Shown: positions 11,682-49,046 of the stretch, piece after piece | Layout: each line of letters begins with the position of its first letter | Numbering within the stretch: position 1 is the stretch's first letter | Source: an uncultured bacterium | Lineage (GTDB): Bacteria; Acidobacteriota; Aminicenantia; Aminicenantales; CALLJL01 | Assembly (NCBI GenBank): GCA_938092135.1 | Contig: CALLJL010000019.1 | Location: 27,211-91,210 of the forward strand | Reading direction: 5' to 3' | DNA length: 64,000 nt | Translations under genes and position numbers: made by a program | Notes under the pieces: model-generated | Told to the model about the DNA's origin: nothing | Database searches by the model: none | Seen by the model: the letters and a program-made list of their open reading frames with translations, nothing else

Positions 11682-11928
11682 AATAAGCTAAGAAAAAGAT
11701 CTTTTTGATAAGAAATTAATAAAGGCTTTAATAAAGCCTGGCGTGAAGAATAATAGCCTTAATTAAAATTTTCTTTAGGGTCTAGATAGTATCGCTCAAC
11801 AATAAAAATATAATTATAAGACAAGATAATCGTAACGCCAGATAATTGATTGAGTAAAAAGAGAAAGTCATTTATATTAAAAATTCTTCAGAGAAAATAA
11901 GTTAAATGAAGTAGAAGGAACCTAAAAA

Positions 11929-14326: not shown

Positions 14327-15610
14327 TTATATTCGACCAGTAACAAATCTCTTGATCCAGGAAAGAAAAAGGAAAAAGTAGGCATCAACAATCAAATCCA
14401 AACGAAAAAGAGGATTCCTTATTCCAGTTTTCAAGAAAAGCCACAAAACGAGACCTTTATGAGTCGGCGGACAGCCATCAATACGACGCTTCACCCTGGC
14501 TCGAACCTTACCCTCAATTTTTGTGCATTGACCAAGGAGAAGAAGCCGATCAGCCTCAATATCTCCTTTATAATGGCCAATAACTACGGTCCAATCAGGC
14601 ATTTTTCCCCAGAGATCTGGTTTTCTATCCTTAATCATGTAAAGCCAATCAAGAAAAACACCCTGACAACCTCCATAGCAATAGGGCTCCCCGTTAATAA
14701 CTTTAATTCGGGGATGAGCCTTTTCGAGGCGAATAAAACCAGTGGATAGATGACAGGTTTTCCTTTGAAGTTCCTCAAGGGTAATATCACCGCCAAGCTC
14801 AATCTCTTCGAGATTTAATGATCCGTAGCCTCTTCGTGAGGCCGCCACGAGATGACCGATCTGCTTCGGATCAAGATGGAAAAGATGACTGCAGACAACA
14901 TCATGGGCCAAGGGATTGGAAGCCATGATAATTGCCCCCAGATGATAACCGGGCTGGGTTAATTGATTTCCCCCGCAGGCAATTTCAATAGCGTCAGTGG
15001 CTATAAAGTCAGGATAGCCTACTTCAAGAAGATCAACTATTTTTTCATCGAGGTTATAGTTATGATTCCACATCCTTTCCCGATCACAGAGAAGACCAAT
15101 GTTAAGCTTTAAAGAAGCGGTTAAACCCTGGGAAAGAACATTGGTTTTGAGTTTGGGAGCATAGATGAGACAATCTCTCTCAACTATTTCCCTGGCTGTT
15201 TTTATTTTTTTATGGACTTGGCCTTTTTCAAGCCAGACTGTTTTCTTTTTTGATTCTTCTATGGCTATTAGCTTCAAAAAAGGCTTTTTCTTTAATTGAT
15301 GATAGCCAGCCCGTCGAAACATACGAGTCGTAGGCAGACCAGTGCCGCATTTTTCGGCTATAAAAATTTTAGCCTCGGGGCCGGCCATCCTCTTGATCGC
15401 TTCGATCAACCCCTCAAGAAACTCGACCCTCGTAAAAGCCGATGGTGCCACAAGATAATGGGCCATAACCACATTGGGCTTAATGGTAATCCTACCTTTA
15501 ATTTTGGGACCTACCCCGATTTCTTGAATACCCTCCTCAATTATTGACGAGATGAGGAAAGGATCATATTTTTCGGCTCGTCTTAGAATTACCTTTGGTC
15601 TATTTATCAT
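14327..15610 (-). CDS. DUF362-domain protein
   Basis: 427 aa. The N-terminal PKVILRRAEKYD...ITIKPNVV block is typical of DUF362, and the C-terminal tail is hydrophobic. Confidence 0.55.
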   Translation of the reverse strand: MINRPKVILRRAEKYDPFLISSIIEEGIQEIGVGPKIKGRITIKPNVVMAHYLVAPSAFTRVEFLEGLIEAIKRMAGPEAKIFIAEKCGTGLPTTRMFRRAGYHQLKKKPFLKLIAIEESKKKTVWLEKGQVHKKIKTAREIVERDCLIYAPKLKTNVLSQGLTASLKLNIGLLCDRERMWNHNYNLDEKIVDLLEVGYPDFIATDAIEIACGGNQLTQPGYHLGAIIMASNPLAHDVVCSHLFHLDPKQIGHLVAASRRGYGSLNLEEIELGGDITLEELQRKTCHLSTGFIRLEKAHPRIKVINGEPYCYGGCQGVFLDWLYMIKDRKPDLWGKMPDWTVVIGHYKGDIEADRLLLLGQCTKIEGKVRARVKRRIDGCPPTHKGLVLWLFLKTGIRNPLFRLDLIVDAYFFLFLSWIKRFVTGRI

Positions 15611-33789: not shown

Positions 33790-34914
33790 TTAAAACTTTA
33801 TCTCGACCAATTTAAGTTCATAGCTTCTGAAGCCAAGACCGATTTCTTCTCCGTATTTCAATTGAACCGACCAGTCAAGGTCATAACCTTCTTTCAGCAC
33901 ATCCCGTCGAGCTTCCTTTAAAACCAAGTCAACTGAAGCTTGGTCCAAGGCCACTGGATCATAGGAAGCCAGCATGCCTATATCCTCAACAATGGAGGGC
34001 TGATTTTTGGCCAAGCAATCGCAATCTTTAGTAATTTGCAAGAGGAAATTCAAAAAAACAATTTTTGGACCAAAATAATTCCTCAAAGCTAGGGCATATT
34101 CGACCATTTTCTCCTGAATCCGACGGCTGTCCTCATCCCAGCGCATCCTAATGGCCCCAACTTTGCAAATAACCAAACACTCCCCGCAACCAAGGCAGCG
34201 TTCATCAATAATTTTAGCCACTCCACTTTCCTGGATAATGGCTTGAGCTGGACAGTTAGTCAAGCAAAGGCCGCAATTGGTACAGTATTTAGGATTAACC
34301 CTCGGGTGGACCTCTGAGTGCTGTTCCAATTTGCCAGCCCTCGAAGCACAGCCCATACCTAAATTCTTAATGGCACAGCCGAAACCAGTCTGGACATGAC
34401 CGGTAAAATGACTCAGCACTATCAGAGCGTCGGCCAGAATAATTGATTTAGCAATCTTGGCTGATTTAATTCTCCGCCCATTTATTTTTATTTCCCCATC
34501 CTCAGCTCCAAGAAGACCGTCGGCAATGATCACTGGCAAGCCAGTGCCCTCATAGGTAAAACCATGTTCAGCTGCTTGCCGCAGATGATTGACTGCATTA
34601 GATCTTTCCCCCACATAAAGCGTATTAGAATCAGTAAAAAAGGCTCTGGAAGTCTTTTCTTTTATCCGCTCAATAATTCCTCTGAGCCAGGCCGGTTTGA
34701 TATAGCCTGTATTACCCTTCTCGCCAAAATGGATTTTCAGGCCGACAAAATCATTCTGGCTGATTCGGTCCTGAAAACCAGTCATGGAGTAAATCTTTTC
34801 AGCCTTAGCGGCAATAATTTCTGTTCCTTCTTCTCTTTTGGCCGGAATAAAATAAACCTGACTCTTCATTTCAGGAAGGTTTTTTCCCCTCAAGATATAG
34901 TTTTGCAGCTTCAA
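33790..34914 (-). CDS. DUF362-domain protein with C-terminal 2x[4Fe-4S] ferredoxin domain; a likely true start is Met16 at 34869
   Basis: A DUF362 N-domain is followed by CTNCGLCLTNCP and CLGCGECLVICK ferredoxin motifs. Starting at 34869 removes the 44-nt overlap with the aminotransferase gene. Confidence 0.65.
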   Translation of the reverse strand: MKLQNYILRGKNLPEMKSQVYFIPAKREEGTEIIAAKAEKIYSMTGFQDRISQNDFVGLKIHFGEKGNTGYIKPAWLRGIIERIKEKTSRAFFTDSNTLYVGERSNAVNHLRQAAEHGFTYEGTGLPVIIADGLLGAEDGEIKINGRRIKSAKIAKSIILADALIVLSHFTGHVQTGFGCAIKNLGMGCASRAGKLEQHSEVHPRVNPKYCTNCGLCLTNCPAQAIIQESGVAKIIDERCLGCGECLVICKVGAIRMRWDEDSRRIQEKMVEYALALRNYFGPKIVFLNFLLQITKDCDCLAKNQPSIVEDIGMLASYDPVALDQASVDLVLKEARRDVLKEGYDLDWSVQLKYGEEIGLGFRSYELKLVEIKF

Positions 34915-36025
34915 CTGCAGCGCCAGCTTTTAAAGGAAAATTCATAGAAATCATAGTCTTTTCGATGGCTTCGAGAGCAAAAATAACTTGTTCTTGAGAT
35001 AAATTACCCATGTGGCCCATCCTGAAAACCAGGCCAGCCGTCGGTCCAAGACCGCCGGCCACCACAATTCCCTTTTCATAGAGACTTTCCCTGAACCGCT
35101 TATCATTCATTCCTTCTTGATAGCGAACAACGGAGAGAGTGGGGGCAAGAAAAGCCTCATGGGTAAAAAAGGAAAAGCCCATTTCCCTAAGGGCAGCCCG
35201 AATAGCTCTGGCTATCAGCCGATGCCGCTCAAATCGTTTTTCCAGGCCCTCTTCCAAAACAATCTGCGTGGCCTCATAAAAGGCCCTAATTTCATTTACA
35301 CAGGGAGTAGAAAAATATTTTGACGGATCTTTCATGATGGGTAACCAGCGGAGCAAATCAGAATAATAGGCGGGTATTGACTTCATCGCTTTTCTTTTTT
35401 CCATGGCTCTTGGAGAAAGAACTAAGATGGAAAGACCAGGGGGAGCTCCAAAACACTTCTGGGCAGCCGTTAAAATAACATCAATCCCCCAAGAATCCAT
35501 GAATTCTTCCATTCCGCCGGTAGCGCAAACTCCGTCAACAATGAAAAGCTCTTCCCTGTTACGAAGCAAAGCGGCATATTGGTCAATGGGCGCACAAGTT
35601 CCGGTGGCCGTATCCACATGAGTTGCAATAACGGCTGCGTAAGAAGTTAGTTTTAACTTTTTCTCTAAATCTTCAGGGTAAATTCCCTGCCCCCATGGAG
35701 AGGCTAATATCTCGGCCTCAAGATCAAAGGCCCTAAAGATTTCGGCCATTCTTTCTCCGAAATAGCCGTGGGAAATAATCAGGGCCTTCTCGCCTCTGGC
35801 CACAGTATTTAGAACCGCCATCTCCATGGCTAAGGTTCCTGCCCCAGCGATGATAAAGGCTTCACCATTAGCGCAATCAACAATTTTCTTTAGATTTTCC
35901 ACAGCCCCCTTTAGTTCAGCCACCATCTCTGGCCCAACATGAGAAACTGTGGGCAAGGACAAGCGATTGATAATTCGGGGATGAACCGGACTCGGTCCGG
36001 GAATCAATAGCAACTTCTCTTTCAT
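34871..36025 (-). CDS. Class-V aminotransferase (serine-pyruvate / alanine-glyoxylate aminotransferase family)
   Basis: 384 aa, with LLIPGPSPV at the N-terminus and a PLP-lysine region (ILTAAQKCFGAPPG). Confidence 0.8.
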   Translation of the reverse strand: MKEKLLLIPGPSPVHPRIINRLSLPTVSHVGPEMVAELKGAVENLKKIVDCANGEAFIIAGAGTLAMEMAVLNTVARGEKALIISHGYFGERMAEIFRAFDLEAEILASPWGQGIYPEDLEKKLKLTSYAAVIATHVDTATGTCAPIDQYAALLRNREELFIVDGVCATGGMEEFMDSWGIDVILTAAQKCFGAPPGLSILVLSPRAMEKRKAMKSIPAYYSDLLRWLPIMKDPSKYFSTPCVNEIRAFYEATQIVLEEGLEKRFERHRLIARAIRAALREMGFSFFTHEAFLAPTLSVVRYQEGMNDKRFRESLYEKGIVVAGGLGPTAGLVFRMGHMGNLSQEQVIFALEAIEKTMISMNFPLKAGAAVEAAKLYLEGKKPS

Positions 36026-36130
36026 TGTGGGCCTTCCTTATTGATTTAAATGAAAAAACATTTTGGCTCAACCTCATTCATAAATCAAGATGAAATTATT
36101 ATAATTGGCTCAAGGTAAAGGGAGGTAAGC

Positions 36131-37459
36131 ATGAAAAAATCTATATATCTATCCTGGGTTCCGTTAATTTTGGTTTTATTAATCTTAATCTCTTTTTATT
36201 CAACCTTTTCCTATCCCCAAGCCTATGTCCCTACTGAAAGTAATCTTAAAGCTCGGGAATGGTTCCAGAAGGCTAAATTCGGACTTTTCATTCACTGGGG
36301 CCTATATTCTATTCTGGGAGATGGTGAATGGGTCATGTTTAATCGCCGAATTCCAGCTGCCGATTACGAAAAACTCACTCAATTTTTTAATCCCATAGCC
36401 TTTGATCCCAAGGAATGGGTTTCTTTAGCCAAGGAAGCTGGAATGCGCTACATTGTCATTACTTCAAGACATCACGATGGCTTTAGTCTTTTTGCGACAA
36501 AAGCTACAAATTACAATGTGGTTAAAGCTACACCCTATGGTCGTGATGTTCTTAAAATGCTGGCTGAGGAGTGCCAACGTCAGGGAATAAAACTCGGCTT
36601 CTATTACTCCCTCCTTGATTGGCATCATCCCGATTATGTTCCAAGAACACCTTCCGGCGAGCTCTTAAAGCGGACAGGTAAAGGCGATTGGTCCCGTTAC
36701 CTTGATTTTATGAAGACTCAGCTGAAGGAATTGCTGACCAATTATGGGGAAATTCTGTGCATCTGGCTTGATGGCCACTGGGACAGTCCCCAAGCCGACT
36801 GGAGCTATAACGAACTTTATAATCTTATCCATTCTCTCCAACCTCAGGTTCTAATCGGTAATAACCACCATACCTCTCCTTTTCCTGGCGAAGATTTTCA
36901 AATGTTTGAGAAAGATTTGCCAGGTGGTCGAACCCAGATATTTAATGTGGATCAGCCCGTAAGCTCTCTTCCCTTAGAGATGTGCGAAACCATTAACAAT
37001 TCCTGGGGTTTTAATATTAATGACCGCCATTATAAAAGCCCAAAAGAACTTATTCATCTTCTGGTTAAAGCGGCTGGCCACGATGCCAATCTTCTCCTTA
37101 ATGTAGGCCCAATGCCCAATGGTCGGATTCAACCTGAATTTATCGATCGATTGCTTGAAGTTGGACGGTGGCTCCGGGTCTATGGGGAATCTATTTATGG
37201 CACAAGAGGTGGACCTCTGCGGCCGCAGCCCTGGGGAGTCACGACGAGGAAAGAACGATTTGTCTTTGTCCATCTCCTTAATTATGAAGAACAGGCTCTC
37301 CTTCTTCCCGGATTTAATCTTCCCCTAAAGCAAGCCACTCTTCTGAAAAATGGCCAGAAAGTAAGCTTTCGCCTTCTGCCTGAAGGCCTGATTTTGAATC
37401 TACGGGGCCTTGAAAAAGACCCTATTGACACTGTCATTCGCCTCGAAATATCGCTTTGA
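36131..37459 (+). CDS. Alpha-L-fucosidase (GH29)
   Basis: 442 aa with a signal peptide and FGLFIHWGLYS...YIVITSRHHDGFSLF...GFYYSLLDWHHPDY, the GH29 catalytic-domain signature. Confidence 0.85.
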   Translation: MKKSIYLSWVPLILVLLILISFYSTFSYPQAYVPTESNLKAREWFQKAKFGLFIHWGLYSILGDGEWVMFNRRIPAADYEKLTQFFNPIAFDPKEWVSLAKEAGMRYIVITSRHHDGFSLFATKATNYNVVKATPYGRDVLKMLAEECQRQGIKLGFYYSLLDWHHPDYVPRTPSGELLKRTGKGDWSRYLDFMKTQLKELLTNYGEILCIWLDGHWDSPQADWSYNELYNLIHSLQPQVLIGNNHHTSPFPGEDFQMFEKDLPGGRTQIFNVDQPVSSLPLEMCETINNSWGFNINDRHYKSPKELIHLLVKAAGHDANLLLNVGPMPNGRIQPEFIDRLLEVGRWLRVYGESIYGTRGGPLRPQPWGVTTRKERFVFVHLLNYEEQALLLPGFNLPLKQATLLKNGQKVSFRLLPEGLILNLRGLEKDPIDTVIRLEISL

Positions 37460-37499
37460 AATAAAAAAAATTAGGTTATGAAAGGATTTAGAAAAAACC

Positions 37500-39851
37500 A
37501 TGAAATTTAAAAAGTTATTTTTCCCTTTCCGAAAATTAATTTTTAATCTTTCTAGCCACCTCTTCCTTTTTCTTTTGGCGGCAAACCTATTACTCCTATC
37601 TTTCCTTGCCGCTGAATCATTCCGCCTGAATCAAATCAACCTTATTCCTCAGCCTTTCTCGATACAAAGGGGGAAAGGTACTTTAAATCTTAGCGAAAGA
37701 AGCAAAATTATTATCAGCCAAAGACATCACGAAGTCTTAGAGATAGCTAACGAATTTCAATCGAGGCTCCGTCAAGCTACTAGCTGGCCCTGGGAAATTA
37801 AAGATACGACGCAGATCAATTCACTTCGGGGGCATATCTTCCTCCGTTTACTGCCGACCAAAAAAACCTTGGCGCCGAAGGCTATGAATTAAGAATAAAT
37901 TCAAGCAATATCCTTATTGATGCTTCTACACCAGCCGGCCTTTTTTATGGTCTTCAAACTCTCTGGCAAGTATTCCCTGCTTCTTTTGAAAGCTTTCTCG
38001 CTCCATCTTCTAATCAACAGCTTGAAGGACAAAATAGACCTTTTTCTGCTTCCTTATCGCTTCCTTTGATCCATATCATCGATAAACCCCGCTTTCGCTG
38101 GCGGGGAGTTCATCTTGACTGTTCTCGTCACTTTTTCCCAAAGAGTGGATAATGAAATTGCTGGATGTGGCTTCAAGCTATAAGCTTAACACTTTTCATT
38201 GGCATCTTACCGATGATCAGGGCTGGAGAATTGAAATCAAAAAGTATCCTCGGCTCACCGAAATTGGCGCCTGGCGCCGGGAAACAATGGAAGATGGCCA
38301 GCCCTATGGTGGTTTCTATACTCAGGAAGAAATAAAGGAACTTATTGCTTATGCTCGCCGTCGCTTTATAACGATTGTCCCTGAAATTGAAATGCCTGGC
38401 CATTGTCTGGCTGCTCTCGCTGCTTATCCTGAATTGAGCTGCTCTGGCGGACCCTTTAAAGTTAGTGCCGAATGGGGAGTAATGAACGATGTTTTCTGCG
38501 CCGGCTCTGAAGAAACCTTTACCTTTCTGGAAAATGTCCTCAGTGAGGTTATAGAACTTTTCCCCGTGAATACATTCACATTGGTGGCGATGAGGTACCA
38601 AAGGTTCGCTGGCGAAACTGCGTTCGTTGTCAGGCCAGAATGAAAGCCGAGGGACTTAAAGATGAAAGCGAACTTCAGAGCTATTTCATTAGGCGAATTG
38701 AAACTTTTCTTAACAGCCAAGGAAGACGCTTAATTGGCTGGGATGAAATTCTTGAAGGAGGCCTGGCACCCCGCGCCACAGTTATGAGCTGGCGAGGTTT
38801 TTTCGGAGGAATTGCTGCGGCTCGAGCAGGTCATGATGTGATTATGAGTCCAACTTCCCATTGTTATTTTGATTATTATCAGGGCCAAGTGGATGAACCC
38901 AAAGCCATTGGGGGTTTTTTGCCGCTGGAAAAAGTCTATTCCTTTGAACCCATCCCACCTGAACTTAAGCCCGAAGAAGCTGCTCACGTTCTTGGAGCTC
39001 AAGCTAATCTCTGGACTGAATATATTAAAACCCCTGAACATGCTGAATACATGCTTTTTCCCCGCCTTCTTGCTTTAGCTGAGGTTATTTGGAGTCCGAA
39101 GAAGAAAGATTGGGCTGATTTTCAAAAGCGCCTTGTGGCCCATTATGACCGCCTGGCCTTTAAAGGGATTAGCTTCAGGGTCCCTCCGCCTGAGGGTATA
39201 GGTGGCCGAAAATGGTCAAAAGAAAAAATAAATTTAGTCCTCGTTACCCCTGTACCCGGAGCCAAAATTGTTTATACCTTAGATGGAGGATTTCCCAATG
39301 AAAATTCTTTAGTCTATACTTCTCCTTTAGAAATTTCGGGCAATGTAATTCTCCGCTCAGCCACCCTTCTTCCCAATGGTCGGATGAGTCATCCAGTCTC
39401 AATGTATTTTTTCCAGGTAGACGAAAATCTTAACGGTCTTGATTATGATTATTTCGAAGGCAAATGGGAAAAGTTACCCGATCTCGATAAAGAAAAGCCT
39501 CTCTTTTCAGGTGTAACCTATGATTTGACTTTGGATGGCCTTAAGACAGCTGAGGATTATTTTGCTCTTCGCTTTCGGAGCACACTTTATCTTGATCAGG
39601 AAGGAGAATATATTTTTTATACTCGCGCTGATGACGGCGTAAGATTGAAAATAAATGATTTGATTGTAGTTGATAATTGGGGTCTTTTCGGACAACGGGA
39701 ACTTAAGGGCCGCATCTATCTCAAGGCAGGTGGGCATCGCCTTCAGGTTGATTATTTTGAAAAAAGAGGCGGGCAGTATCTTGAAATCTTTATTGAGGGG
39801 CCAAGACTTCCCTATCAACCCATTCCTCCGGCCCGCCTTTTTAGGAATTAA
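37500..39851 (+). pseudogene. Beta-N-acetylhexosaminidase (GH20) with C-terminal PA14 domain, split into four ORF pieces by three -1 frameshifts at homopolymers
   Basis: The 37500..37892 ORF has a signal peptide and the GH20 N-domain (LIPQPFSIQRGKG). The next piece reads GAEGYELRINSS...RFRWRGVHLDCSRHFFP in frame 2 and ends at a stop at 38150. The 38152..38643 ORF reads KEWIMKLLDV...FHWHLTDDQGWRIEI...MPGHCLAALAAYP. The 38640..39851 piece reads PREYIHIGGDEV...NLWTEY and then the PA14 domain (GDDGVRLKINDLIVVDNWG...HRLQVDYFEKRGG). The frame changes fall at the A7 run 37860-66, at TTTTTCCCAAAG 38132-43 and at TTTTCCCC 38559-66. Confidence 0.7.
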
Positions 39852-40101
39852 TAAAAGGCCAGTTTTTCAAAGAAAAAGAATTCAAGGGTAAAAATTGAAA
39901 AGAAGAAATCAACAATTTTAATCAATAATTTTATCAGGAATACTGACCGGAAAATTTTCTGGTTAGACTTATTAAAAAAAGATTTTTAAAATAAAAGGCC
40001 CAGATGCAAGAAAAAATTAAAATTTTTAACTCCCTTAAGGACAAATTTTATTGAGCCGAAGGCGATAGTCTTTTTTCAAATTTTATTAAGAGGCAGGCCC
40101 A

Positions 40102-41571
40102 ATGAAACTATTGGTTATAATAATTAACCTTGAGATGATTTTGCAAAACAGGATGAATGAGAGTCGTGTTAAAAATATTTTAATAACTAAAATTCCAAAG
40201 AGGATTGGAGACACTCGTTTCATCGCCATGACCTTTGCTTTTCTTCTTTTGCCTCTTTTTAGCCCCCTTCTTTTACCAGCTCAATCTTCCCTTGAAGAAA
40301 TATCTTCCAAGGCGGCTGATTATTTTCGAATTCAAAATGAGCTTGGCCGTTTCTCAGGGGCTGTTCTTATTGGCTCCAAGGGAAAAATAATTTTTGAAAG
40401 AGGCTATGGGTTAGCCAATTATGAACTTCAGGTACCGATTACTCCACGGACCAAATTCCGTCTGGGCTCACTCACCAAGGCTTTTACTGCCGCCGCTATT
40501 TTACAGTTAGCTGAAAAGGGGAAGCTCAGTCTTGATGATCAGGTGGCCCGATACTTATCTAATTATCCCCAGGCTGAAAAAATAACTATTCATCATCTGC
40601 TTACCCATACCTCAGGTATTCCCAATTTTACTGCCTTGCCTGAATATCAGAAATTCAAGCTCAATCCGACGACTCTGGACCGAACAATCAATCTCTTTCG
40701 ACAATTGCCCCTTGAATTTGAGCCAGGAACAAAATTTAGTTACAGCAACTCTAATTACATTCTTCTTACAGATATTATTGAAAAGGTTTCAGGCAAAAGT
40801 TATGCCGACTATTTGCGGGAAAATATCTTTCTTCCTCTAAATATGTTAGATACCTGCTACGACGATCCAAATAGGATTATAAAGTACCGTTCCCGAGGTT
40901 ATAGCCTTCGAAATGGTGATTTGATCAATGCCCCCCACATTGACATGTCTGTACCAGCTGGGGCTGGAGGTCTTCTTTCAACCGTAGAGGACCTCTTTGC
41001 CTGGGATCAGGGCCTTAGAAGTGAGCGGATTTTGACCGCCGCCTCCTTAGAAAAAATGTTCACTCCTTTTCTGAATGGCTATGCCTATGGCTGGGAGATA
41101 AAAAAAATTAATGGTCGCCTGATCGCCCAACACGGGGGGAGAATTGAAGGCTTTTTAAGTCAAATGGTCCGTTTCCTTGATGATGACCTTTGCTTAATTA
41201 TCCTAAGCAATTTTGATTTTGCCCCTCTTTCCCAATTCATAGAAGACATGCTTTCCCTCTTTTTAGGAAAACCGGTCACCTGGCCAAAAGAAAGAAAGGC
41301 TATTTCACTTCCGCCCGAAATTTTTAATCTCTATTGTGGTGAATATGAGTTCGCACCGAATTTATTAATTAAGATTTTTAGGGAAGGGAATCGTTACTGG
41401 GCTCAGGTCATCGGACAACCAAAGCTGGAAATTCTGCCTGAAAGTAAGACCAGTTTTTTTGTCCGTCTCATTGATGCCCAAATAAATTTTATCCTTGATT
41501 CAGAAGGAAAGCCTAATGCTCTTCTTCTTATTCAAGGAGGAAAAACTCACGAGGCCAAGAAGATTCGTTAG
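40102..41571 (+). CDS. Beta-lactamase-fold serine hydrolase (class C / AmpH / esterase-like); a likely start is Met43 at about 40228, preceding the signal peptide
   Basis: The SxxK motif is in RLGSLTKAF, the YxN motif in YSNSNY, and a D/H-x-GG motif is present (AQHGGR). A signal peptide reads MTFAFLLLPLFSPLLLPAQS. Confidence 0.75.
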   Translation: MKLLVIIINLEMILQNRMNESRVKNILITKIPKRIGDTRFIAMTFAFLLLPLFSPLLLPAQSSLEEISSKAADYFRIQNELGRFSGAVLIGSKGKIIFERGYGLANYELQVPITPRTKFRLGSLTKAFTAAAILQLAEKGKLSLDDQVARYLSNYPQAEKITIHHLLTHTSGIPNFTALPEYQKFKLNPTTLDRTINLFRQLPLEFEPGTKFSYSNSNYILLTDIIEKVSGKSYADYLRENIFLPLNMLDTCYDDPNRIIKYRSRGYSLRNGDLINAPHIDMSVPAGAGGLLSTVEDLFAWDQGLRSERILTAASLEKMFTPFLNGYAYGWEIKKINGRLIAQHGGRIEGFLSQMVRFLDDDLCLIILSNFDFAPLSQFIEDMLSLFLGKPVTWPKERKAISLPPEIFNLYCGEYEFAPNLLIKIFREGNRYWAQVIGQPKLEILPESKTSFFVRLIDAQINFILDSEGKPNALLLIQGGKTHEAKKIR

Positions 41572-41573
41572 GA

Positions 41574-42701
41574 TCAACGAAGAATCTTGAGGAGACAATT
41601 AATAACAGTCTGCATTTGCCTTTGCTGTTTCTCCATTGAATGGAGAAGCTTAAACTGGGTTCTGGCCCGGACAAGATTGTGCTCAGGATATTTTGTTTTA
41701 AAATAAATATCACCTTCAAGGTAATCGGTTAAAAAACGCAGTCCGATAGTAAAAGTGATGAGCGGGCCAGCCATAAAGAGCAATTCTCTTTCGGGCTCGA
41801 CCAGGAGATCAGCAGTTTCAGAAAGATAACCCTCGGCTACGGCCTCAAAGAGATCCATGTCCATAGCCACAGCGTCGAGATCGGTTTCATCTTCAGCCGC
41901 CGCACAGGTCCCTGTTCGAACTAAGTCACCAAAATCATAAAGGGGTGAACCGGGCATGGTCGTATCCAAATCAATGACACATATGCCTTTGCCAGTTTCA
42001 TCATCAAAAAGAACGTTGTTGATTTTAGTGTCATTGTGACTGACCCTTACAGGCAACCTCCCTGAACTTAAGCCATCGGTCACTAGAGAAACAAGGGATT
42101 GCCTGCTTAAAGCAAAGGAAATAGTATCAGCTGCCCTGGCCTTTCTTTCCGGAGAAGCCTGCTCGATGGCCAGTAGAAAACGTTCAAAACGGCGGGGGGT
42201 GTGATGGAAATAGGGAATGGTTTCATGCAATTCCTGAGGCGAAAGATCAGCAATGAGTTTTTGAAAAAAACCAAAGGCTCGGCCAGCCTCAAAGGCCTGC
42301 TCAGGAGTAGTCGCAGTTTCAATGGTGTGACAGCCGTCAACATAATGATAAAGTCGCCAGTATTCTCCCTGGGGGGTCCGGTAATAACTTTGACCACTTT
42401 GGGTTAAAACTGGCCTGATACTTTTTTTTGATGTTTTTTCTCCTTCAAGCTCAATCAATTTCCTGTTAACATGTTGAGCGACCTTTTCCCAGTTGGCCAT
42501 CATCAATTCGGGCTCCTGAAATACGCGGGTATTAATCCGTTGCAGAGTATATTTTTTTATTTTTTCATCAGTTTTAATTTCGACAAGAAAGGTATCGTGG
42601 ATATGGCCTTGGCCAAGAGGGGAAAAACAAATAAGTGAACCCTCAACAATAAAGTTGGCCATAACTAATTCTATTTCCTTTTTCGTCAATTTCTTAACCA
42701 T
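41574..42701 (-). CDS. N-acetylhexosamine 1-kinase-like anomeric sugar kinase (NahK/AmgK, APH phosphotransferase fold)
   Basis: 375 aa. From memory of B. longum NahK, several blocks align closely. [12 protein letters not shown] matches [28 protein letters not shown] matches [34 protein letters not shown] matches [46 protein letters not shown] matches [28 protein letters not shown]. Confidence 0.7.
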   Translation of the reverse strand: [375 protein letters not shown]

Positions 42702-42722
42702 ATTTTTTGTTTTTGTTTTTAT

Positions 42723-43685
42723 TTATTTCTTATTTCTCATTTCCAAATTCAACCTTAAATTTTCAGGGTAATAACCTTGAGCCACGAGATCACCAATTCC
42801 CTTCCTCACTACCGGCAAATCTTCCGCATAGGTTATGCCAAGCCATTTTTCATCAGTGGGTAGGCAAAAAACTTTAACTTTTCTTTGACGGAGTAATTCA
42901 CCAATAAATTCTGGAATGAGAAATTCAGCCTTAGGATCATGGCCATATTTATTAAGGAAATCGAAAAAACCAACTTGCAGCCAATTGAAAATGGAGGGAT
43001 CAAAACCCCAGAAATTCATTGAGACCACTTCCTCACCATCAAGATCAAGCCAGCCTCCGTCTTCGAGACGAGCTCTGGCTCCCCCTTCAGTTTTTTCAAT
43101 ATGCTTCATTTCCTGGATATCGCTTATTTCATCACCTTGAAGTTGACATAGGCCTCGGGAAACAGGACCAAAATCGGAAAGAGTTTGTTTTAAACGATAC
43201 CCAACTAAGGCATATTCCGGCTTTAAATCTTTTTCCCCAGCTTTAGTACTCGACCGCACCAGAAATTCAACCATTACCTCAAAGGCCCTCCGACCATAAA
43301 AATCATCAGCATTGATTACCGCGAAAGGTTCCTGCACCCTGTCTCTGGCCACCAGGAGAGCATGGCCTGTTCCCCAGGGTTTGCTCCGCTGTAAATTCTC
43401 AGGCCAGCCCATAGGTAAAAGCGAATCGAGTTCCTGATAAATATAATCGACCTCAAAAAAACCTTCCCAGAAATGACCGATAATTGCCCTAAAATCAGCT
43501 TCAATTTCGCGGCGAATAACAAAGATTATTTTTTTGAAACCAGCTTGAAAGGCGTCATACAGAGAATAATCAATAATGGTTTCGCCCTTTGGACCAACAT
43601 GACTAAGTTGTTTTATACCACCAAAGCGACTACCAATGCCGGCAGCAAGAACAATTAAGGAAATTTTAGCCTTTTCTTTCACCAT
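42723..43685 (-). CDS. Sugar-1-phosphate nucleotidyltransferase (NTP_transferase fold; UDP-HexNAc pyrophosphorylase candidate)
   Basis: 320 aa. The N-terminal LIVLAAGIGSRFGGIKQL is a G-x-G-x-R nucleotide-binding motif. The gene lies immediately upstream of the NahK-like kinase on the same strand, with a 21-nt gap. Confidence 0.65.
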   Translation of the reverse strand: MVKEKAKISLIVLAAGIGSRFGGIKQLSHVGPKGETIIDYSLYDAFQAGFKKIIFVIRREIEADFRAIIGHFWEGFFEVDYIYQELDSLLPMGWPENLQRSKPWGTGHALLVARDRVQEPFAVINADDFYGRRAFEVMVEFLVRSSTKAGEKDLKPEYALVGYRLKQTLSDFGPVSRGLCQLQGDEISDIQEMKHIEKTEGGARARLEDGGWLDLDGEEVVSMNFWGFDPSIFNWLQVGFFDFLNKYGHDPKAEFLIPEFIGELLRQRKVKVFCLPTDEKWLGITYAEDLPVVRKGIGDLVAQGYYPENLRLNLEMRNKK

Positions 43686-43897
43686 TTTTAAAAATGCCTG
43701 TTAAAAATGCCCTGGCTAAAAATTATTTTTTCCAAATAAGTCTTCCCAAGGCAACAATTGTCGCCTAAAAGGCAAGCGACTCTTTAATCGATTTTTCTTT
43801 ATAACATAGCATGAAAAAAAGAGTCAAAAAATTAAAATTGCTGAAGATAAAGATTTTTGTTATAATTGCCAATCAAAAAATAAAGGGAGGTAAGAAT

Positions 43898-44137
43898 ATG
43901 GGAAAATATTTGGCCATTATCTTGGGTATTGTGGCTATGGCCGCAGGGATTTTTCTGGTTATTTTTGTCTGGTGGCGAGAATTTTATGAACTCGTCTTCG
44001 GCTGTATTCCGCCGCTTTTATTTTTTGGTGGCCTCATTGCGGTTATTGCCGGAATTAGCAGCATCAAGGATGCCATCCGCACCAAGAAGCTTGAGGAGGA
44101 GGCTAAAAAAGAAGCTGAAAAAAAAGAAGCTAACTGA
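43898..44137 (+). CDS. Small two-TM membrane protein with K/E-rich C-terminal tail
   Basis: An RBS AGGGAGG lies 6 nt upstream of the ATG at 43898. Two hydrophobic helices are followed by KKLEEEAKKEAEKKEAN. The listed ORF 43811.. is the same frame with an upstream start that is unlikely to be used. Confidence 0.4.
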   Translation: MGKYLAIILGIVAMAAGIFLVIFVWWREFYELVFGCIPPLLFFGGLIAVIAGISSIKDAIRTKKLEEEAKKEAEKKEAN

Positions 44138-44356
44138 TCAAAATAGAAATATTCTTTTTTTCTAACCACCTCCCTTTAAAATTTAAGATATCATCAGAAA
44201 CCTATTTAAATTTAATCTAATTTTTTTGTTTGAGGTTTGGCTTTTAGAAAAATTTCAAAATAAAGCTTTCTAGTCTTTAAGTTTTTTTCTTTCTTGAAAT
44301 TTACAGTAAAAAGAAAGGATTTTTTTCTATTGACAGGACCTTAGAAATTTAGTAGT

Positions 44357-44379
44357 TTGTAATCAGCTTACAAATTACA
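44357..44379. promoter_or_regulatory. Operator-like cluster of TGTAA half-sites, TTGTAAT-cagc-TTACAA-ATTACA, between a TTGACA -35 (44330-35) and the RBS of the RHH gene
   Basis: TGTAA occurs at 44358-62, and its reverse complement TTACA occurs at 44368-72 and 44375-79. The ATG of the RHH ORF is at 44391, preceded by AGGAGG. Confidence 0.4.
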
Positions 44380-44390
44380 GGAGGCCAGCG

Positions 44391-44753
44391 ATGGATGGCG
44401 AGAAAGAAAAGGACCAGATAGCGGCTAAAATTGATGAATTTGAGTCCCAGGTAGAAAAATTAACAATAAAGCCTACCTCTTCGATTAAAAAAGTTATCGA
44501 TCAGGCTCTGGCCAATCGAAATATAGTCCTGACCATCCGGGTTAACGAAGAAAGCAACAAAAAACTCAACATGCTGGTTGATGCCGGCCTGTTTAAAAGT
44601 CGCTCTGAAAGCGCTGCCTTCTTGATTGAAGAGGGTATTCGTAGCCAAGCTCCGCTATTTAAAAAAATTACAGAACGACTTGAAAAAATCGATCGTATCC
44701 GCGAAGAACTCAAAAATATTGTCACTGAGGAAATGGAAAAGGCCAAAGATTAA
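44391..44753 (+). CDS. Ribbon-helix-helix (Arc/MetJ/CopG-like) putative transcriptional regulator
   Basis: 120 aa. The segment VLTIRVNEESNKKLNMLVDAGLFKSRSESAAFLIEEGI fits the RHH beta-strand plus two-helix pattern, with the typical (S/T)RSE cap. A strong RBS is present. Confidence 0.5.
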   Translation: MDGEKEKDQIAAKIDEFESQVEKLTIKPTSSIKKVIDQALANRNIVLTIRVNEESNKKLNMLVDAGLFKSRSESAAFLIEEGIRSQAPLFKKITERLEKIDRIREELKNIVTEEMEKAKD

Positions 44754-44793
44754 AAAGATTTTCATCGGCCTGGGTTCGGAGAGAAAGTCAACC

Positions 44794-45225
44794 TTGGTTC
44801 GATTAATCAATTTCATTTTTCCCCTTTCTTTAACCCTTCTTACCTTTACTTCAAGAAATATTGAAAAGGCTTTTCTCCAGAACAATGCCTCCATCCTGGC
44901 CGCTATCTGTCAACCTAATTCTATTATCCAGGTTTCCCTCCCCGAGCCTATCGGTTTCTCTGATGTCCTTACTCCCGGCCAAATAAAAGTTTTTTTTGAA
45001 AGAATTTTTGCCCAATTTCCCACCTTTGAATTCTTTATTGAATCTCCCTTTCCTTTGTTTTTATCAAGCGACCGCTGGTTCATTCGAGCCCGTTGGTCTT
45101 TCCTGGAAAAAAAGAGTCTCGAGCAACATGTTCTCAGAATTTATTTCCAGGTTCAAGCAACAGGAAAACTTCAGAAAAGAGGAGGCGAATGGAAAATAAT
45201 CGAGATTCGGGCCGAAAAGATTTAA
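44794..45225 (+). CDS. Hypothetical NTF2-like (DUF4783/SnoaL-like) protein. The start is uncertain: TTG at 44794, or an earlier ATT/ATC codon.
   Basis: This is the same frame as the listed 44626..45225 ORF. The C-terminal half (FERIFAQFPTFEFFIESPF...RWFIRARWSF...GEWKIIEIR) looks like an NTF2-fold cone. It overlaps the kinase start by 37 nt. Confidence 0.3.
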   Translation: MVRLINFIFPLSLTLLTFTSRNIEKAFLQNNASILAAICQPNSIIQVSLPEPIGFSDVLTPGQIKVFFERIFAQFPTFEFFIESPFPLFLSSDRWFIRARWSFLEKKSLEQHVLRIYFQVQATGKLQKRGGEWKIIEIRAEKI

Positions 45226-48200
45226 GGCCGGAATTTTCCATCAAGACGGTCAGACCTCTCTTGTGGCTTTCCCTGGCCTTGGCTTTCATCAGCGGTCTCT
45301 GTTTTTTGGGATCAGCCTTAATTCCCAACGGGCATTTAAAATATCAAACTTCAGCTAGCTTAGAGGCCCTTAAAAAACAGGAACGGTCCATTAAGAATCA
45401 ATTTGAAAGCCTTATTTCCAACCTCAAATATAAGGGTCATTCCCTAGCCACGACTTTGCCCCAGGAAATACCAGAAATTCATCAGGCGCTTTTCTCTCTA
45501 CATCTTAATCCTGAAATCGAGGGGGTAGCTTATTTAATTGAAGACTCAATTATTCTTTGGCGCGGCCAGATGATTCCTGCATCTTTGCTTCCGCCCGCTG
45601 ATAAAATTACTCATGTTATTCGTTATAAGGCCAGCATTTATCTCGTCGCTTCTTTTCCGGTGAGGGAAAAAGAAAAGTTAGTAATCCTACATCTTCTTTC
45701 TTTTCAACCTCCCCTAACCACTTCCCTACTCAGCTCCTATTCTTTTATTAAAGCAAAGGATCTGACTAATGCCCTTATTGAATTTTATAGTGAGGAAGAT
45801 GATGTCTCTGGCTTTGAAAAAATCTTTTTTCGCCATCACGACGAATATATCAGCCAGCCGAGATCGAGAACCGATATATTGACCATCTTTTTCCCCCTCC
45901 GCAATGAGGCTCGAAGAATTGTGGCCACAGTCAATCTTCGTTCAGTTAACCCAGCTTTTAGCCTCAGTGAGCAAAGAAGCCGTTGGCTGCTGGCTGCCTG
46001 GATCAATCTTTTTCTATCTTTTTCTTTTTTCACCTTAATGGGATTATTTGCTTGGAAAAAGTCTAAATATCAATCGACTGGCAATCTCATTATTTTTCTT
46101 TTTGGGCTTATTTCCCTCCGACTGGTTTTTCTACCCCTTAAAACTTATTTTGATATTAAAACCTCCCTGTTTTCGCCCGGAAAAGCGTCTATTCCTGCTC
46201 TTAACCACCTTTTAGCCTCACCCCTTGATATTTTTTTGACCTCGGCATTGATTTTCGCCTGTCTCTTTTTTCTTATTTACAATTGGCGTCATATCTTTCC
46301 TCTCGACACGCCAAGCCCATCTAGGGGAAGTAAAAAAGGCTTGGCTCTTATCCTCGTTATTACCTCGTCCCTTCCTCTTTATCTTTTTTATAAAATCGCG
46401 CTCGCTTTCATCCTTAATAGCAATCTAAACCTAATCAAAATCTCTCCTTTCTCGTCCTCCCTCTTACTTCTTTTAGCCCTTAGCTTCATTTTTCTGACCG
46501 CAATTTTAATAAGCGGAATTTTTTTAATTGTGGCCAGAAAGCTCTGGTTTCACCCTTTTCCCCTCTGGCTTATTTTTATTCCTCTACTTTTGCTTTTTAT
46601 CCTCTTTTATGGTAAAGCCCAATTATCTCTGGTCAAAGGCTTAGTCCTTTCTCTCATTTTCTTTGGAATTTATTTAGGGCTCTTTAAACCCCCTTTTCGC
46701 TTCCGATCAGGTTATCGGCTAACCCTTCTGGCGTTATCCTCAATCTTTTTCTATATAATTCTTGCCTCTGGCACCTCAATAAAAGAAACAATCTTGACAG
46801 AAAGCTATCTCCGGAATTCAATTATTTCCCTTGAAAATTGGGCTCAGTACTTGCTCCAGGAATCACTTCCATCCATTGACAATGAAAAAGAAGCCATTCT
46901 GGATTGCCTGCTCAAGGGAGATCAAAACGATCTGGCCGCTTATCTCTGGAGGAAAACCTCTCTAGCCCGTTGGAACTGGTATTCAAGCCTTGAAATAAGC
47001 CGACCTAACGGCGAGGTATTATCCCGTTATTCCCTGAATCTACCCTTTTTTTTCCGGACTCCTTTTTCCTTTGAGCCGAGTCAGGATTGGTCACTTTTGA
47101 GGGTGAGTCTTCCTTTGCCGGGAAAGGTAGCAGATTTTCTTATTGCCTATCGGGATTTTGAGCATGGAGGAAATAAGGTCGGGCGGCTATCTCTTTATGT
47201 CCTTTTAAACGAAGAAATCCTTCCTTTCCTTTATTCAGCTATTCCTTATTTTGACCTCCTGCGCTTTCCCTCTGTTCCATCTTTAAAGGAGTTTAATTTC
47301 AGCTTGGCTATTTTTAAAACCGATGGAGAAATTATTTTTAATCCGGCCCGGCTAACCACCGGAATACCGGTGGAAATTCTAAAAAGATTGAAGGATCATC
47401 CTGGAAATCCCTTTTGGTCTATCCTGTCTGACCGCCGTAGGAAATTTCGGGTCTTTTATTTTGGCCATGGCGAAAAGATTGTGGCTCTACTCTGGCCTTT
47501 ACCTGGATTCATCTCGGTGGCTGTGGGCTATCTAAAAATCCTGTTGATACTGACAATTTTGATTTATTTACCTTTATTTATTAGCGATATGATCACCGGA
47601 AGGCGCCGTCTGGCCTCCCTTTTCTGGGCTTTTTCAAGCCGTATTTATGCTTCCTTTATAGCCATAATTCTTATTATGCTCATCCCCTTTATTTTTCTTA
47701 TTAATAGCTTTTTCAACCGCCTGGCCACAGAGAGGTTTAGGGAAAAGGCGGAGATTCAGGCTCAGGTTGCCCGAAACATCATCGAAGACTTTCTCGTCCT
47801 GCAGGAGGAGGAAACTCCCTTTGTTCCTGTTCAGGACCTTGTTCATTGGATAAGTACAGCGATTAATAATGATGTCAATATTTATCAAGGCGGGGTTCTT
47901 GTCGCTTCCAGCCGCCAGGAGTTTTTTGACCTGGGCCTTTTGCCTGATTACCTTGAAGGCGAAATTGCCTATCGTCTTAACTATGAACGGCAACCCTATG
48001 TTGTTTGGAGAAAAAAAATCGGCAATTACTCGTTTCAAACTCTGACCCTTCCTTTATATCTAAACAATTCGAATTTCTTTATTACTCTCTTTTTCCCTTT
48101 TGAACGTGAAGAGATAGGCCGAGCTCGGGAGCAGTTACTTGAATTTCTGGCTTTTATCTCTGCCTTTTCTCTAATTCTTATTTCTCTCTTCGCCCGCAGT

Positions 48201-49046
48201 ATAGGCTCCCTTGTTATAAATCCCATCCGAAAGCTCCTTCTGGCCACAAAAGAAGTAAGCTCAGGCAATCTCGATATTCGCATTGACCATCATGGTCACG
48301 ATGAGATGCAAACCCTCATCGATGGTTTTAACCGCATGGTTCAGAGTCTCAAGCAGCACGAAAAAGAACTTGCAGAAATGAGCAAAAAGGCAGCCTGGGC
48401 CGAAATGGCTCGAAAAGTTGCCCATGAGGTCAAAAATCCCTTGACTCCCATAAGACTTTCCGCTGAACACCTTTTGCATGTCTATGAAGAAAGACCTCAA
48501 GAAATCGGGCCAGCTTTAAAGGAAGCGGTCGCCTATATAATTAAAGAAGTAGAAAACCTGCGACGTTTGGCCCAAGACTTTCTGACCTTTTCCCGGGAAG
48601 GCCCCCTCCATAAAACTTACTTTGAGCTTAATCAATTATTGAAAGAAATAACTTCTCCCTACGAAAGAATTCTGGCCGATCGTATCAACTTTGAATTTAA
48701 TTTAGCCTGTCCCTTAACTTTAATGGGTGATCAGGAGAAACTTAAAATCGCTTTCCGCAATCTTATTGTCAATGCTATTGAAGCAATTAAAGGCAAAGGA
48801 ATAATTAAAATTCAAGCTACCCGTGAAGGCTCCTTCTTTAATATTGAAATAATCGATAATGGTGAAGGCATGGATGAAACCACTTTAAGACTTATCTTTG
48901 AACCCCATTTTTCCACCAAAGATCTGGGGACAGGGCTTGGCTTACCGATCTCGAAAAAAATAATTGAAGATCATGGTGGTCAAATAATCATTAGAAGCTC
49001 TCCAGGCCAGGGAACTTGCGTTAAAATTGTCTTACCTGCGGGCTAA
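45189..49046 (+). CDS. Large multi-TM sensor histidine kinase (NtrY-like H-box; a ~1000-aa polytopic sensor region, then HAMP, HisKA and HATPase_c domains), orphan
   Basis: The true start is probably ATG 45189, with AGAGGAGG 4 nt upstream; the listed 45093 is an upstream in-frame Met. At least 12 predicted TM helices fall into two blocks separated by soluble loops. The HAMP region reads KLLLATKEVSSGNLDIRID, the H-box reads MARKVAHEVKNPLTPIRLS, and the N/G1/G2 boxes read NLIVNAIEA...IDNGEGM...GTGLGLPISKKIIEDHGG. Confidence 0.85.
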   Translation: MENNRDSGRKDLRPEFSIKTVRPLLWLSLALAFISGLCFLGSALIPNGHLKYQTSASLEALKKQERSIKNQFESLISNLKYKGHSLATTLPQEIPEIHQALFSLHLNPEIEGVAYLIEDSIILWRGQMIPASLLPPADKITHVIRYKASIYLVASFPVREKEKLVILHLLSFQPPLTTSLLSSYSFIKAKDLTNALIEFYSEEDDVSGFEKIFFRHHDEYISQPRSRTDILTIFFPLRNEARRIVATVNLRSVNPAFSLSEQRSRWLLAAWINLFLSFSFFTLMGLFAWKKSKYQSTGNLIIFLFGLISLRLVFLPLKTYFDIKTSLFSPGKASIPALNHLLASPLDIFLTSALIFACLFFLIYNWRHIFPLDTPSPSRGSKKGLALILVITSSLPLYLFYKIALAFILNSNLNLIKISPFSSSLLLLLALSFIFLTAILISGIFLIVARKLWFHPFPLWLIFIPLLLLFILFYGKAQLSLVKGLVLSLIFFGIYLGLFKPPFRFRSGYRLTLLALSSIFFYIILASGTSIKETILTESYLRNSIISLENWAQYLLQESLPSIDNEKEAILDCLLKGDQNDLAAYLWRKTSLARWNWYSSLEISRPNGEVLSRYSLNLPFFFRTPFSFEPSQDWSLLRVSLPLPGKVADFLIAYRDFEHGGNKVGRLSLYVLLNEEILPFLYSAIPYFDLLRFPSVPSLKEFNFSLAIFKTDGEIIFNPARLTTGIPVEILKRLKDHPGNPFWSILSDRRRKFRVFYFGHGEKIVALLWPLPGFISVAVGYLKILLILTILIYLPLFISDMITGRRRLASLFWAFSSRIYASFIAIILIMLIPFIFLINSFFNRLATERFREKAEIQAQVARNIIEDFLVLQEEETPFVPVQDLVHWISTAINNDVNIYQGGVLVASSRQEFFDLGLLPDYLEGEIAYRLNYERQPYVVWRKKIGNYSFQTLTLPLYLNNSNFFITLFFPFEREEIGRAREQLLEFLAFISAFSLILISLFARSIGSLVINPIRKLLLATKEVSSGNLDIRIDHHGHDEMQTLIDGFNRMVQSLKQHEKELAEMSKKAAWAEMARKVAHEVKNPLTPIRLSAEHLLHVYEERPQEIGPALKEAVAYIIKEVENLRRLAQDFLTFSREGPLHKTYFELNQLLKEITSPYERILADRINFEFNLACPLTLMGDQEKLKIAFRNLIVNAIEAIKGKGIIKIQATREGSFFNIEIIDNGEGMDETTLRLIFEPHFSTKDLGTGLGLPISKKIIEDHGGQIIIRSSPGQGTCVKIVLPAG

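Follow-up and report, generated by a model that had tools for sequence, protein, structure and literature searches.

A NahK-type kinase and a 3PNN-family nucleotidyltransferase as a predicted N-acetylhexosamine salvage pair, tail to tail with a separate hydrolase block, in an uncultured Aminicenantales bacterium

The 64,000-nucleotide stretch analysed here (the window; contig CALLJL010000019.1, positions 27,211 to 91,210, from an uncultured Aminicenantales bacterium) carries five adjacent genes at positions 36131-43685, for a GH29 fucosidase, a GH20 hexosaminidase, a beta-lactamase-fold serine hydrolase, a NahK-type kinase and a sugar-phosphate nucleotidyltransferase (NTase). A first-pass annotation of the same DNA had read them as one glycan-scavenging and amino-sugar salvage island. 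Our analyses make it rather probable that they are instead two tail-to-tail units, i.e. an NTase-kinase operon that would convert N-acetylhexosamine (HexNAc) to HexNAc 1-phosphate (HexNAc-1-P) and then to uridine diphosphate (UDP)-HexNAc, and a block of hydrolases. The unit conserved more widely is the NTase-kinase pair, which is adjacent in about 40% of loci whichever of its two genes is taken as the starting point. This account builds on protein family memberships, frameshifts, gene order and conservation statistics, all of which were observed directly.

Pfam scans agree with the five domain calls made in the first pass (GH29, GH20 with PA14, beta-lactamase fold, APH kinase and NTP_transferase) at the same coordinates, but neither the single co-oriented cluster nor the GH20-PA14 protein as the product of one gene could be upheld. 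The GH29, GH20 and serine hydrolase genes lie on the + strand and the NTase and kinase genes on the - strand, the two groups being convergent with 2 bp between the stop codon of the serine hydrolase gene and that of the kinase gene; with convergent strands at this spacing, the five genes cannot be one transcription unit. In the pair, the NTase gene (42723-43685, - strand, 320 aa) comes first, and a 21-nt spacer separates its stop codon from the start of the kinase gene (41574-42701, - strand, 375 aa), the two being adjacent and co-oriented as in the AmgK-MurU pair. The intergenic region 43686-43897, between the NTase start and a divergent MamI-like small gene, is presumed to hold the promoter of the NTase-kinase unit; promoter and terminator scans of 35900-44400 gave matches at chance level, including in this region, and operon boundaries are not derivable from them. 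In the translations, hydrophobic, signal-like N termini are present on all three hydrolases and on neither the kinase nor the NTase.

By its sequence the kinase is clearly a full-length homologue of NahK, the N-acetylhexosamine 1-kinase (EC 2.7.1.162 family). Its Pfam match is to APH (E 2.6e-17), and its strong matches in the Protein Data Bank (PDB) are all to NahK, with 4OCU at E 1.9e-84 (residues 13-367) and 4WH1 and 4OCJ at up to 7.5e-82; together the matches span residues 13-371, and identity to NahK is 44% over 341 aligned residues. There was no NCBIfam match, and the comparison contained no AmgK sequence or structure. A profile of the kinase family reached 8e-115 against NahK in the PDB, as opposed to E 0.01-0.02 against true aminoglycoside phosphotransferases, and the kinase therefore belongs, as the first-pass annotation had proposed, to the NahK group and not to the aminoglycoside or homoserine kinases. 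The catalytic-loop and Mg-binding motifs (HNDTKxNN, IDLDTxMPGS and DFGD) align as identical or near-identical to those of NahK, and they are invariant across 16 homologues.

The NTase matches Pfam NTP_transferase (E 1.2e-6) and, in the PDB, entry 3PNN (E 6.1e-81 as a single sequence, 1.1e-123 with the family profile), a 'conserved domain protein' of Porphyromonas gingivalis W83 with no assigned function. The next PDB matches, to GalU-type UTP-glucose-1-phosphate uridylyltransferases (1e-6 to 1e-7), cover the N-terminal ~120 residues only; with the profile, GlmU was matched only at E 0.1 and MurU not at all at E <= 1. In a Foldseek comparison the AlphaFold2 model of the NTase (pLDDT 94.2, pTM 0.92) superimposes best on 3PNN (TM-score 0.86/0.91, 45% identity), then on RmlA and GalU (TM-score ~0.6, 14-20% identity), with MurU not among the top 50 neighbours, which were 3PNN, RmlA and GalU structures. 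The motifs LAAGxGSRxGGxKQ (the G-rich NTP loop), KPWGTGHA and NADDFYG are invariant or nearly so in the family alignments. On the evidence of the model, the NTase is a full-size sugar-1-phosphate nucleotidyltransferase of RmlA/GalU-like fold that belongs to a distinct subfamily. Although entry 3PNN bears the title 'glycosyltransferase', the fold of its family is that of the sugar-1-phosphate nucleotidyltransferases. The family has at least 8000 database matches, homologues of the window NTase carry generic names, and searches of the accessible literature found neither a characterised member of the family nor experimental papers on the NTase-kinase pair, on 3PNN or on Amuc_0030/0031. The predicted function is that of a HexNAc-1-P (possibly also galactose-1-phosphate) uridylyltransferase; around KPWGTGHA, where the alignment has an insertion, either Q84 or R100 could be the counterpart of the glutamine by which RmlA and GalU specify U/T.

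Conservation of the pair was counted from both sides. Among 80 species-representative genome loci found with the NahK profile (82 with two loci of the window's own lineage), the NTase gene lies immediately upstream of the kinase gene in 35 of 82 (about 33 of 80 when the window-lineage loci are set aside). In the reverse count, the NTase profile found 80 metagenome loci, 64 of them with at least 600 bp of room downstream; the kinase gene follows immediately in 26 of these 64, and 2 further loci have the order kinase-GalE-NTase. The pair ranges over Verrucomicrobiota, Acidobacteriota, Clostridia, Lentisphaerae, Planctomycetota, Chloroflexota and Raymondbacteria, the first of these including five Akkermansia loci (L039, L041, L043, L083 and L084) in which the NTase gene is directly upstream of the NahK-like gene. 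The joining of the kinase to an NTP_transferase-fold enzyme, to which the first-pass annotation drew attention, is thus kept across phyla; its remark that this is not a textbook arrangement is right as regards experiments but not as regards genomes, in which the pair is very common and in which an NTase family that is probably the same has already been predicted to be 'GalY'. A division of the NTases into NahK-linked and unlinked subfamilies was considered and rejected, the two kinds being interspersed in the tree; the concordance of labels between nearest neighbours (0.75, compared with 0.57 +/- 0.06 after shuffling) is what relatedness would give, as opposed to two clean clades.

Around 59 pair loci, L089 being the only one of the window's lineage, the open reading frames (ORFs) within 4 kb were clustered, representatives were checked against NCBIfam, and membership was counted with tblastn. 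The commonest neighbour is GalE or a related short-chain dehydrogenase/reductase epimerase (21 of 59 loci; 470 bits for the GalE representative, cutoff 394), followed by the glucosamine-6-phosphate deaminase NagB in 10 of 59 (373 bits, cutoff 326). A NagP-like transporter of the major facilitator superfamily, over the gluP subfamily cutoff and under that of the NagP equivalog, is present at 6 of 59 loci, as is a ROK-like protein; a PIG-L/LmbE-type deacetylase occurs at 4 and a GH112-like protein at 1 (L062, with a 723-aa representative assigned to GH112 by eye). The GalE, NagB and NagP-like neighbours point to HexNAc and UDP-sugar chemistry. Since GalE works on UDP-sugars only, its presence near the pair argues for uridine triphosphate (UTP) as the nucleotide substrate of the NTase.

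Together, these observations suggest how the - strand unit (43685 to 41574), a two-gene operon of the NTase followed by the NahK-type anomeric kinase, may work; the substrates, the use of UTP and the direction of flux are all inferred. Characterised NahK acts on both N-acetylglucosamine (GlcNAc) and N-acetylgalactosamine (GalNAc), the galactokinase being galactose-specific (PMC8106489), and by homology the window kinase would phosphorylate cytoplasmic GlcNAc or GalNAc at C1 with ATP and Mg2+. To judge by its fold, its gene pairing and the association with GalE, the NTase would then join HexNAc-alpha-1-P to UTP, giving UDP-GlcNAc or UDP-GalNAc and pyrophosphate, and the UDP-sugar would enter envelope glycan synthesis without the need for GlmS, GlmM and GlmU. 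At loci where GalE, NagB and NagP accompany the pair, a catabolic option may exist in which GalNAc passes through UDP-GalNAc and UDP-GlcNAc to GlcNAc-1-phosphate by reverse pyrophosphorolysis, and onward. More generally, we lean, if only slightly, towards the view that the NTase-NahK pair, often together with GalE, constitutes a widespread direct route from free HexNAc to UDP-GlcNAc and UDP-GalNAc by way of a pyrophosphorylase of the 3PNN family that is neither GlmU nor GalT. The salvage by NahK plus an NTase that the first-pass annotation had put forward is accordingly strengthened by the pairing across phyla and by the pair's neighbours, unlike the integrated island and the peptidoglycan hybrid that it had built on it.

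The closest known logic is that of the LNB/GNB pathway of Bifidobacterium longum (lnpABCD), which comprises a GH112 phosphorylase, NahK, a GalT-type uridylyltransferase and GalE. The likeness lies in the full-length NahK homologue, in the predicted phosphorylation of HexNAc at C1 followed by transfer onto UDP, and in GalE, which accompanies about one in three pair loci elsewhere. The difference lies in the nucleotide step, for which the window has an NTP_transferase-fold enzyme of the 3PNN family, predicted to be of the UTP-dependent type, rather than a GalT-type transferase; indeed, no match to the GalT family was found among the window ORFs scanned against Pfam. Nor does the window contain GH112 (by tblastn with the GH112-like representative assigned by eye), an LNB transporter or GalE. 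The pair thus most likely follows the bifidobacterial NahK/GalT/GalE scheme with one change, in that a UTP-dependent pyrophosphorylase would replace the GalT-type transferase, making the step 'Isselbacher-type' rather than 'Leloir-type'. Eukaryotes salvage HexNAc with the GalNAc 1-kinase GALK2 and the UDP-HexNAc pyrophosphorylase UAP1/AGX1, and galactose has the comparable Isselbacher route. The succession of an anomeric kinase and a UTP-dependent pyrophosphorylase is common to both of these and to the scheme proposed here, although the protein families are unrelated, being a GHMP kinase and a UAP1-type pyrophosphorylase in eukaryotes and an APH-fold kinase and an RmlA/GalU-like NTase in the window.

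The + strand unit (36131 to 41571) is a block of genes for three secreted hydrolases, which would release fucose and HexNAc outside the cell. Its first gene (36131-37459, + strand, 442 aa) is an intact ORF for a GH29 alpha-L-fucosidase, matching Pfam PF01120 Alpha_L_fucos at E 2.7e-102 and 343 bits over profile positions 11-345 of 345; it gives one intact alignment with its orthologue in relative L003 (identity 84.8% by tblastn, 83.2% by pairwise alignment) and begins with the hydrophobic, signal-like sequence MKKSIYLSWVPLILVLLILISF... The last gene of the block (40102-41571, + strand; ORF of 489 aa, with a likely true start near 40228, at MTFAFLLLPLF) matches Pfam Beta-lactamase (PF00144, E 2.8e-68, 231 bits), with a C-terminal DUF3471 domain (E 5e-8), and its translation contains SxxK (SLTK) and YSN motifs. 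In NCBIfam its scores are far under every cutoff (D-aminopeptidase 118 bits against 443, AmpH 101 against 266, class C beta-lactamase 73 against 415). It can be placed in the general Beta-lactamase fold only and is predicted to be secreted.

The middle gene of the block (37500-39851, + strand), in which Pfam recognises Glyco_hydro_20b, Glyco_hydro_20, CHB_HEX_C / Fn3_assoc and PA14, is a recently inactivated pseudogene of a GH20 beta-N-acetylhexosaminidase. ORF calling yields three pieces here, of 130, 163 and 403 aa, and in a six-frame view the protein runs on across frames: the 790-aa orthologue of L003 aligns to the window by tblastn in four pieces, in frames 3, 2, 1 and 3. Nucleotide alignment with the intact orthologues of L003 and L001 revealed exactly three single-base gaps, near 37863, 38133 and 38565; the intact orthologues in relatives are 786, 790, 839 and 763 aa long. 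The catalytic HIGGDE motif lies just past the third deletion, before the 403-aa ORF has its first start codon, so that the GGDE acid/base pair is found in no GH20-region ORF with a standard start codon, and an intact, single-frame catalytic (beta/alpha)8 domain is not present. As regards programmed frameshifting, there are three separate sites, and each of the intermediate frames reaches a stop codon. The hexosaminidase step that the first-pass annotation had written into its salvage scheme is, on account of these three 1-nt deletions, genetically dead in this genome.

Two other explanations of the frameshifts were considered and rejected. Sequencing or assembly error is contradicted by the Logan assembly of run ERR9287632 (L085), which is independent and has all three deletions: over window positions 35574-48701 it differs by 7 mismatches, with no indels, and its ORFs are likewise split into 403, 163 and 130 aa. 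Furthermore, each of the 14 other genes common to the window and L003 gives one intact alignment, and long ORFs, the longest of 1380 aa, tile the remainder of the 64 kb. An old pseudogene is not indicated either, amino-acid divergence of GH20 not being accelerated in comparison with pairs of intact orthologues; the reconstructed protein is 79%, 76%, 72% and 70% identical to its relatives, no lower than the values among the intact orthologues themselves. This lack of acceleration implies that the inactivation was recent.

Comparison with relatives reveals that gene order extends well beyond the five genes. All five are kept in close relatives, several of them named Aminicenantales, with kinase identities of 81% (L001), 73% (L003 and L004), 65% (L086 and L087) and 64% (L089). 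The same relatives also keep the flanking genes, which encode a class-V aminotransferase, a DUF362 Fe-S protein, a MamI-like small protein, proteins of 120 and 143 aa, a 1290-aa histidine kinase, flavodoxin, MeaB and acyl-CoA dehydrogenase. Since these unrelated flanks are kept as well, the synteny of the five genes reflects a lineage-wide gene order and not a mobile module. In a more distant locus, L088, this backbone and the pair are both in place (kinase 52%, aminotransferase 61%, DUF362 protein 60% and 120-aa protein 70% identical to those of the window), but tblastn detected there neither GH29 nor GH20 nor the serine hydrolase, and the kinase and aminotransferase genes stand only 89 bp apart. 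The presence of backbone and pair without the hydrolases implies that the three hydrolase genes behave as a single unit of insertion or deletion, distinct from the pair. The block may have been gained, between the pair and the class-V aminotransferase gene, by an ancestor of the Aminicenantes-like lineage, or may have been lost in L088.

Several observations weigh against reading the locus as an independent salvage pair beside an unconnected block. GH20 adjoins the module in two unrelated lineages, so that some coupling of hexosaminidase and pair is possible: a Phycisphaerales metagenome-assembled genome (L010, positions 2-4004) has a GH20 gene, the product of which is 52% identical to that of the window, followed by NahK and then GalE, and a 651-kb metagenome contig (L144, 3348-7979) has a gene for a 753-aa GH20 (42% identical) divergent from NTase-NahK. 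A GH20 gene beside the NahK module may therefore be a recurrent link between hexosaminidase and salvage, two cases being too few for significance. As to the chemistry, the nearest characterised relatives of the NTase, GalU and RmlA, use glucose 1-phosphate. No partner gene adjoins about 60% of the NTase homologues or about 57% of those of NahK. Finally, Pfam scans and tblastn found no GalE, NagB, NagA, sugar transporter or regulator beside the window's pair, and by tblastn none of the partners that recur near the pair elsewhere (GalE, NagB, NagP-like, ROK-like, PIG-L and GH112-like proteins) is present in the 64-kb window.

These points bear on the alternative of one five-gene island, in which GH29 and GH20 would release sugars, the serine hydrolase would trim peptide, and the kinase and NTase would salvage the amino sugar, perhaps in a scheme mixing host-glycan with peptidoglycan recycling. 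The biochemical order of such a scheme is coherent, the five genes do occur together in L001, L003, L086, L087 and L089, i.e. down to ~64% kinase identity, and the GH20 genes of L010 and L144 lend it some weight. We nevertheless consider it unlikely. The relatives that preserve the five genes preserve the unrelated histidine kinase, flavodoxin, MeaB and acyl-CoA dehydrogenase genes as well, L088 combines backbone and pair with no hydrolases, and a GH29 or serine hydrolase gene was adjacent to the pair at 0 of ~140 other loci, the association being confined to the window's lineage. Convergent transcription, the GH20 pseudogene, the absence of a sugar transporter from the window and an NTase that is not MurU-like tell in the same direction, and among the genes examined none was recognised as related to N-acetylmuramic acid (MurNAc). 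The integrated island of the first-pass annotation hence gives way to two units, and any coupling between them would be a matter of inference; with the HexNAc-releasing enzyme dead and no transporter nearby, the link between block and pair is here at most opportunistic.

A different reassignment concerns the pair itself, which might serve the entry of galactose, or of hexoses in general, into UDP-sugars, with the NTase as a galactose-1-phosphate uridylyltransferase. Ravcheev and Thiele (2017) predicted, from phyletic patterns and clustering with galE in 15 genomes, that Amuc_0031 of Akkermansia muciniphila (PF00483, 291 aa), described as a 'hypothetical protein', is a non-orthologous replacement of GalT, 'GalY' (PMC5583593). 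The window NTase family is probably the GalY/Amuc_0031 family, a membership that is likely rather than proven: the two share the NTP_transferase family, clustering with galE and occurrence in Akkermansia and Bacteroidales, and the NTase ORF of Akkermansia locus L041 (9069-9983) is 304 aa long, or 291 aa, the length of Amuc_0031, when counted from Met14. A start at Met14 would remove the beginning of the G-rich NTP loop, and the start site of Amuc_0031 is probably mis-annotated; the gene order of L041 also differs from the published Amuc_0031-0037 list in having no ProS. That GalE occurs near the pair more often than any other partner, and that the nearest characterised homologues are glucose-1-phosphate enzymes, would suit a galactose or general hexose role. 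GalY was, however, predicted for galactose 1-phosphate, with no mention in PMC5583593 of a NahK partner, and the partner here is of the NahK type rather than a GHMP galactokinase. Amino sugars are indicated by NagB, the NagP-like transporter and the PIG-L deacetylase among the neighbours, and the interspersion of NahK-linked and unlinked NTases in the tree fits one enzyme of broad specificity better than two specificities. We therefore regard a role in galactose entry as quite improbable and retain the assignment of the pair to HexNAc.

The first-pass annotation had also likened the pair to AmgK-MurU, known from Pseudomonas putida, in which an APH-fold anomeric amino-sugar kinase is encoded beside a sugar-1-phosphate uridylyltransferase and de novo UDP-amino-sugar synthesis is bypassed (PMC5371407). 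A shortcut of this type would make UDP-MurNAc, with the neighbouring penicillin-binding protein/beta-lactamase-fold protein working on muropeptides. The layout, an anomeric APH-fold kinase gene beside one for an NTP_transferase-fold enzyme, is indeed the same, AmgK phosphorylates GlcNAc as well (PMC5371407), and the serine hydrolase is weakly similar to AmpH and D-aminopeptidase. Yet the likeness is one of layout and goes no deeper than the fold. The strong PDB relatives of the kinase are NahK only. MurU resembles the GlmU transferase domain and was discovered through this resemblance (PMC5371407), whereas the 320-aa window NTase is RmlA/GalU-like and not MurU/GlmU-like, as the profile and structural comparisons given above indicate. 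Elsewhere the pair's neighbours are GalE, NagB and NagP, with no MurNAc-recycling gene recognised among those examined, although none was searched for, and the serine hydrolase, besides being under every NCBIfam cutoff, is linked to the pair within the window's lineage only. A peptidoglycan shortcut is thus very improbable. That the kinase, the NTase and the beta-lactamase-fold protein make up an antibiotic-resistance cluster, as the Pfam names (APH, NTP_transferase, Beta-lactamase) and the annotation of homologues as 'aminoglycoside phosphotransferase family protein' might suggest, is scarcely credible given a kinase profile of ~1e-115 to NahK versus E 0.01-0.02 to aminoglycoside phosphotransferases, a class C beta-lactamase score of 73 bits against a cutoff of 415, the sugar-1-phosphate nucleotidyltransferase fold of the NTase, and a context that is housekeeping chromosome and not a mobile element.

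If the proposed reading of the NTase-kinase pair is correct, it would give bacteria an equivalent of eukaryotic HexNAc salvage, and would supply a function for the 3PNN family, which has thousands of members and a solved structure, along with a GlmU-independent route to UDP-HexNAc in many phyla. It would then bear on metabolic models of glycan degraders and on the interpretation of amino-sugar auxotrophy, as well as on chemoenzymatic and metabolic-labelling work, in which NahK has already been joined to foreign pyrophosphorylases. More speculatively, the amino-sugar dependence of mucin and glycan specialists such as Akkermansia might be explained in part. The copy in the window is an ordinary member of a common pair, standing beside a lineage-specific hydrolase block with a dead hexosaminidase gene, and it illustrates that neighbouring genes which are functionally plausible together need not form one system.

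Apart from these two units, the genes of the window recognised by Pfam scans are of the housekeeping kind, including those for SecA, IMPDH, PanB/PanC, a phosphate-type ABC transporter, MgsA, SurE, MeaB and acyl-CoA dehydrogenase. Divergent from the NTase gene, a small gene at 43898-44137 (+ strand; ORF listed as 43811-44137) encodes a protein with two transmembrane segments that matches the MamI model NF040963 at E 6.6e-14 and 51.5 bits, under the cutoff of 80. Its orthologues, of 78-84 aa, match PF26391 MamI (weakly in L087 and L088) and occupy the same position in every relative, L088 included. A magnetosome context was considered and rejected, domain scans having found no other magnetosome family in the window, and the gene probably encodes a MamI-like membrane protein of a non-magnetotactic, Aminicenantes-like genome. 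The next gene, at 44391-44753 (+ strand), lies between the MamI-like gene and those for the 143-aa protein and a 1317-aa HAMP/HisKA sensor kinase. Its 120-aa product has no Pfam or NCBIfam match and is 98% identical in L003, where its neighbours are 67-87% identical, and 70% identical in L088; one source names a member of its cluster as an Arc/MetJ-type ribbon-helix-helix regulator.

On the other side of the five genes, the DUF362 gene at 33790-34914 (- strand), the product of which also has 4Fe-4S domains, shares 44 nt with the class-V aminotransferase gene (34871-36025), which it overlaps; this duo is kept in all relatives and may be an uncharacterised aminotransferase/Fe-S unit. A second DUF362 protein is encoded at 14327-15610 (- strand). 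Between two aldehyde dehydrogenase genes, a gap of 1.5 kb (10792-12357) contains only short ORFs, of 103, 93 and 142 aa, the last of these with a PGPGW motif. At 59357-63499 (- strand), and unrelated to the pair or the hydrolases, a gene encodes a 1380-aa fusion of a BcrAD_BadFG ATPase with DUF2229, of the 'CoA enzyme activase' type.

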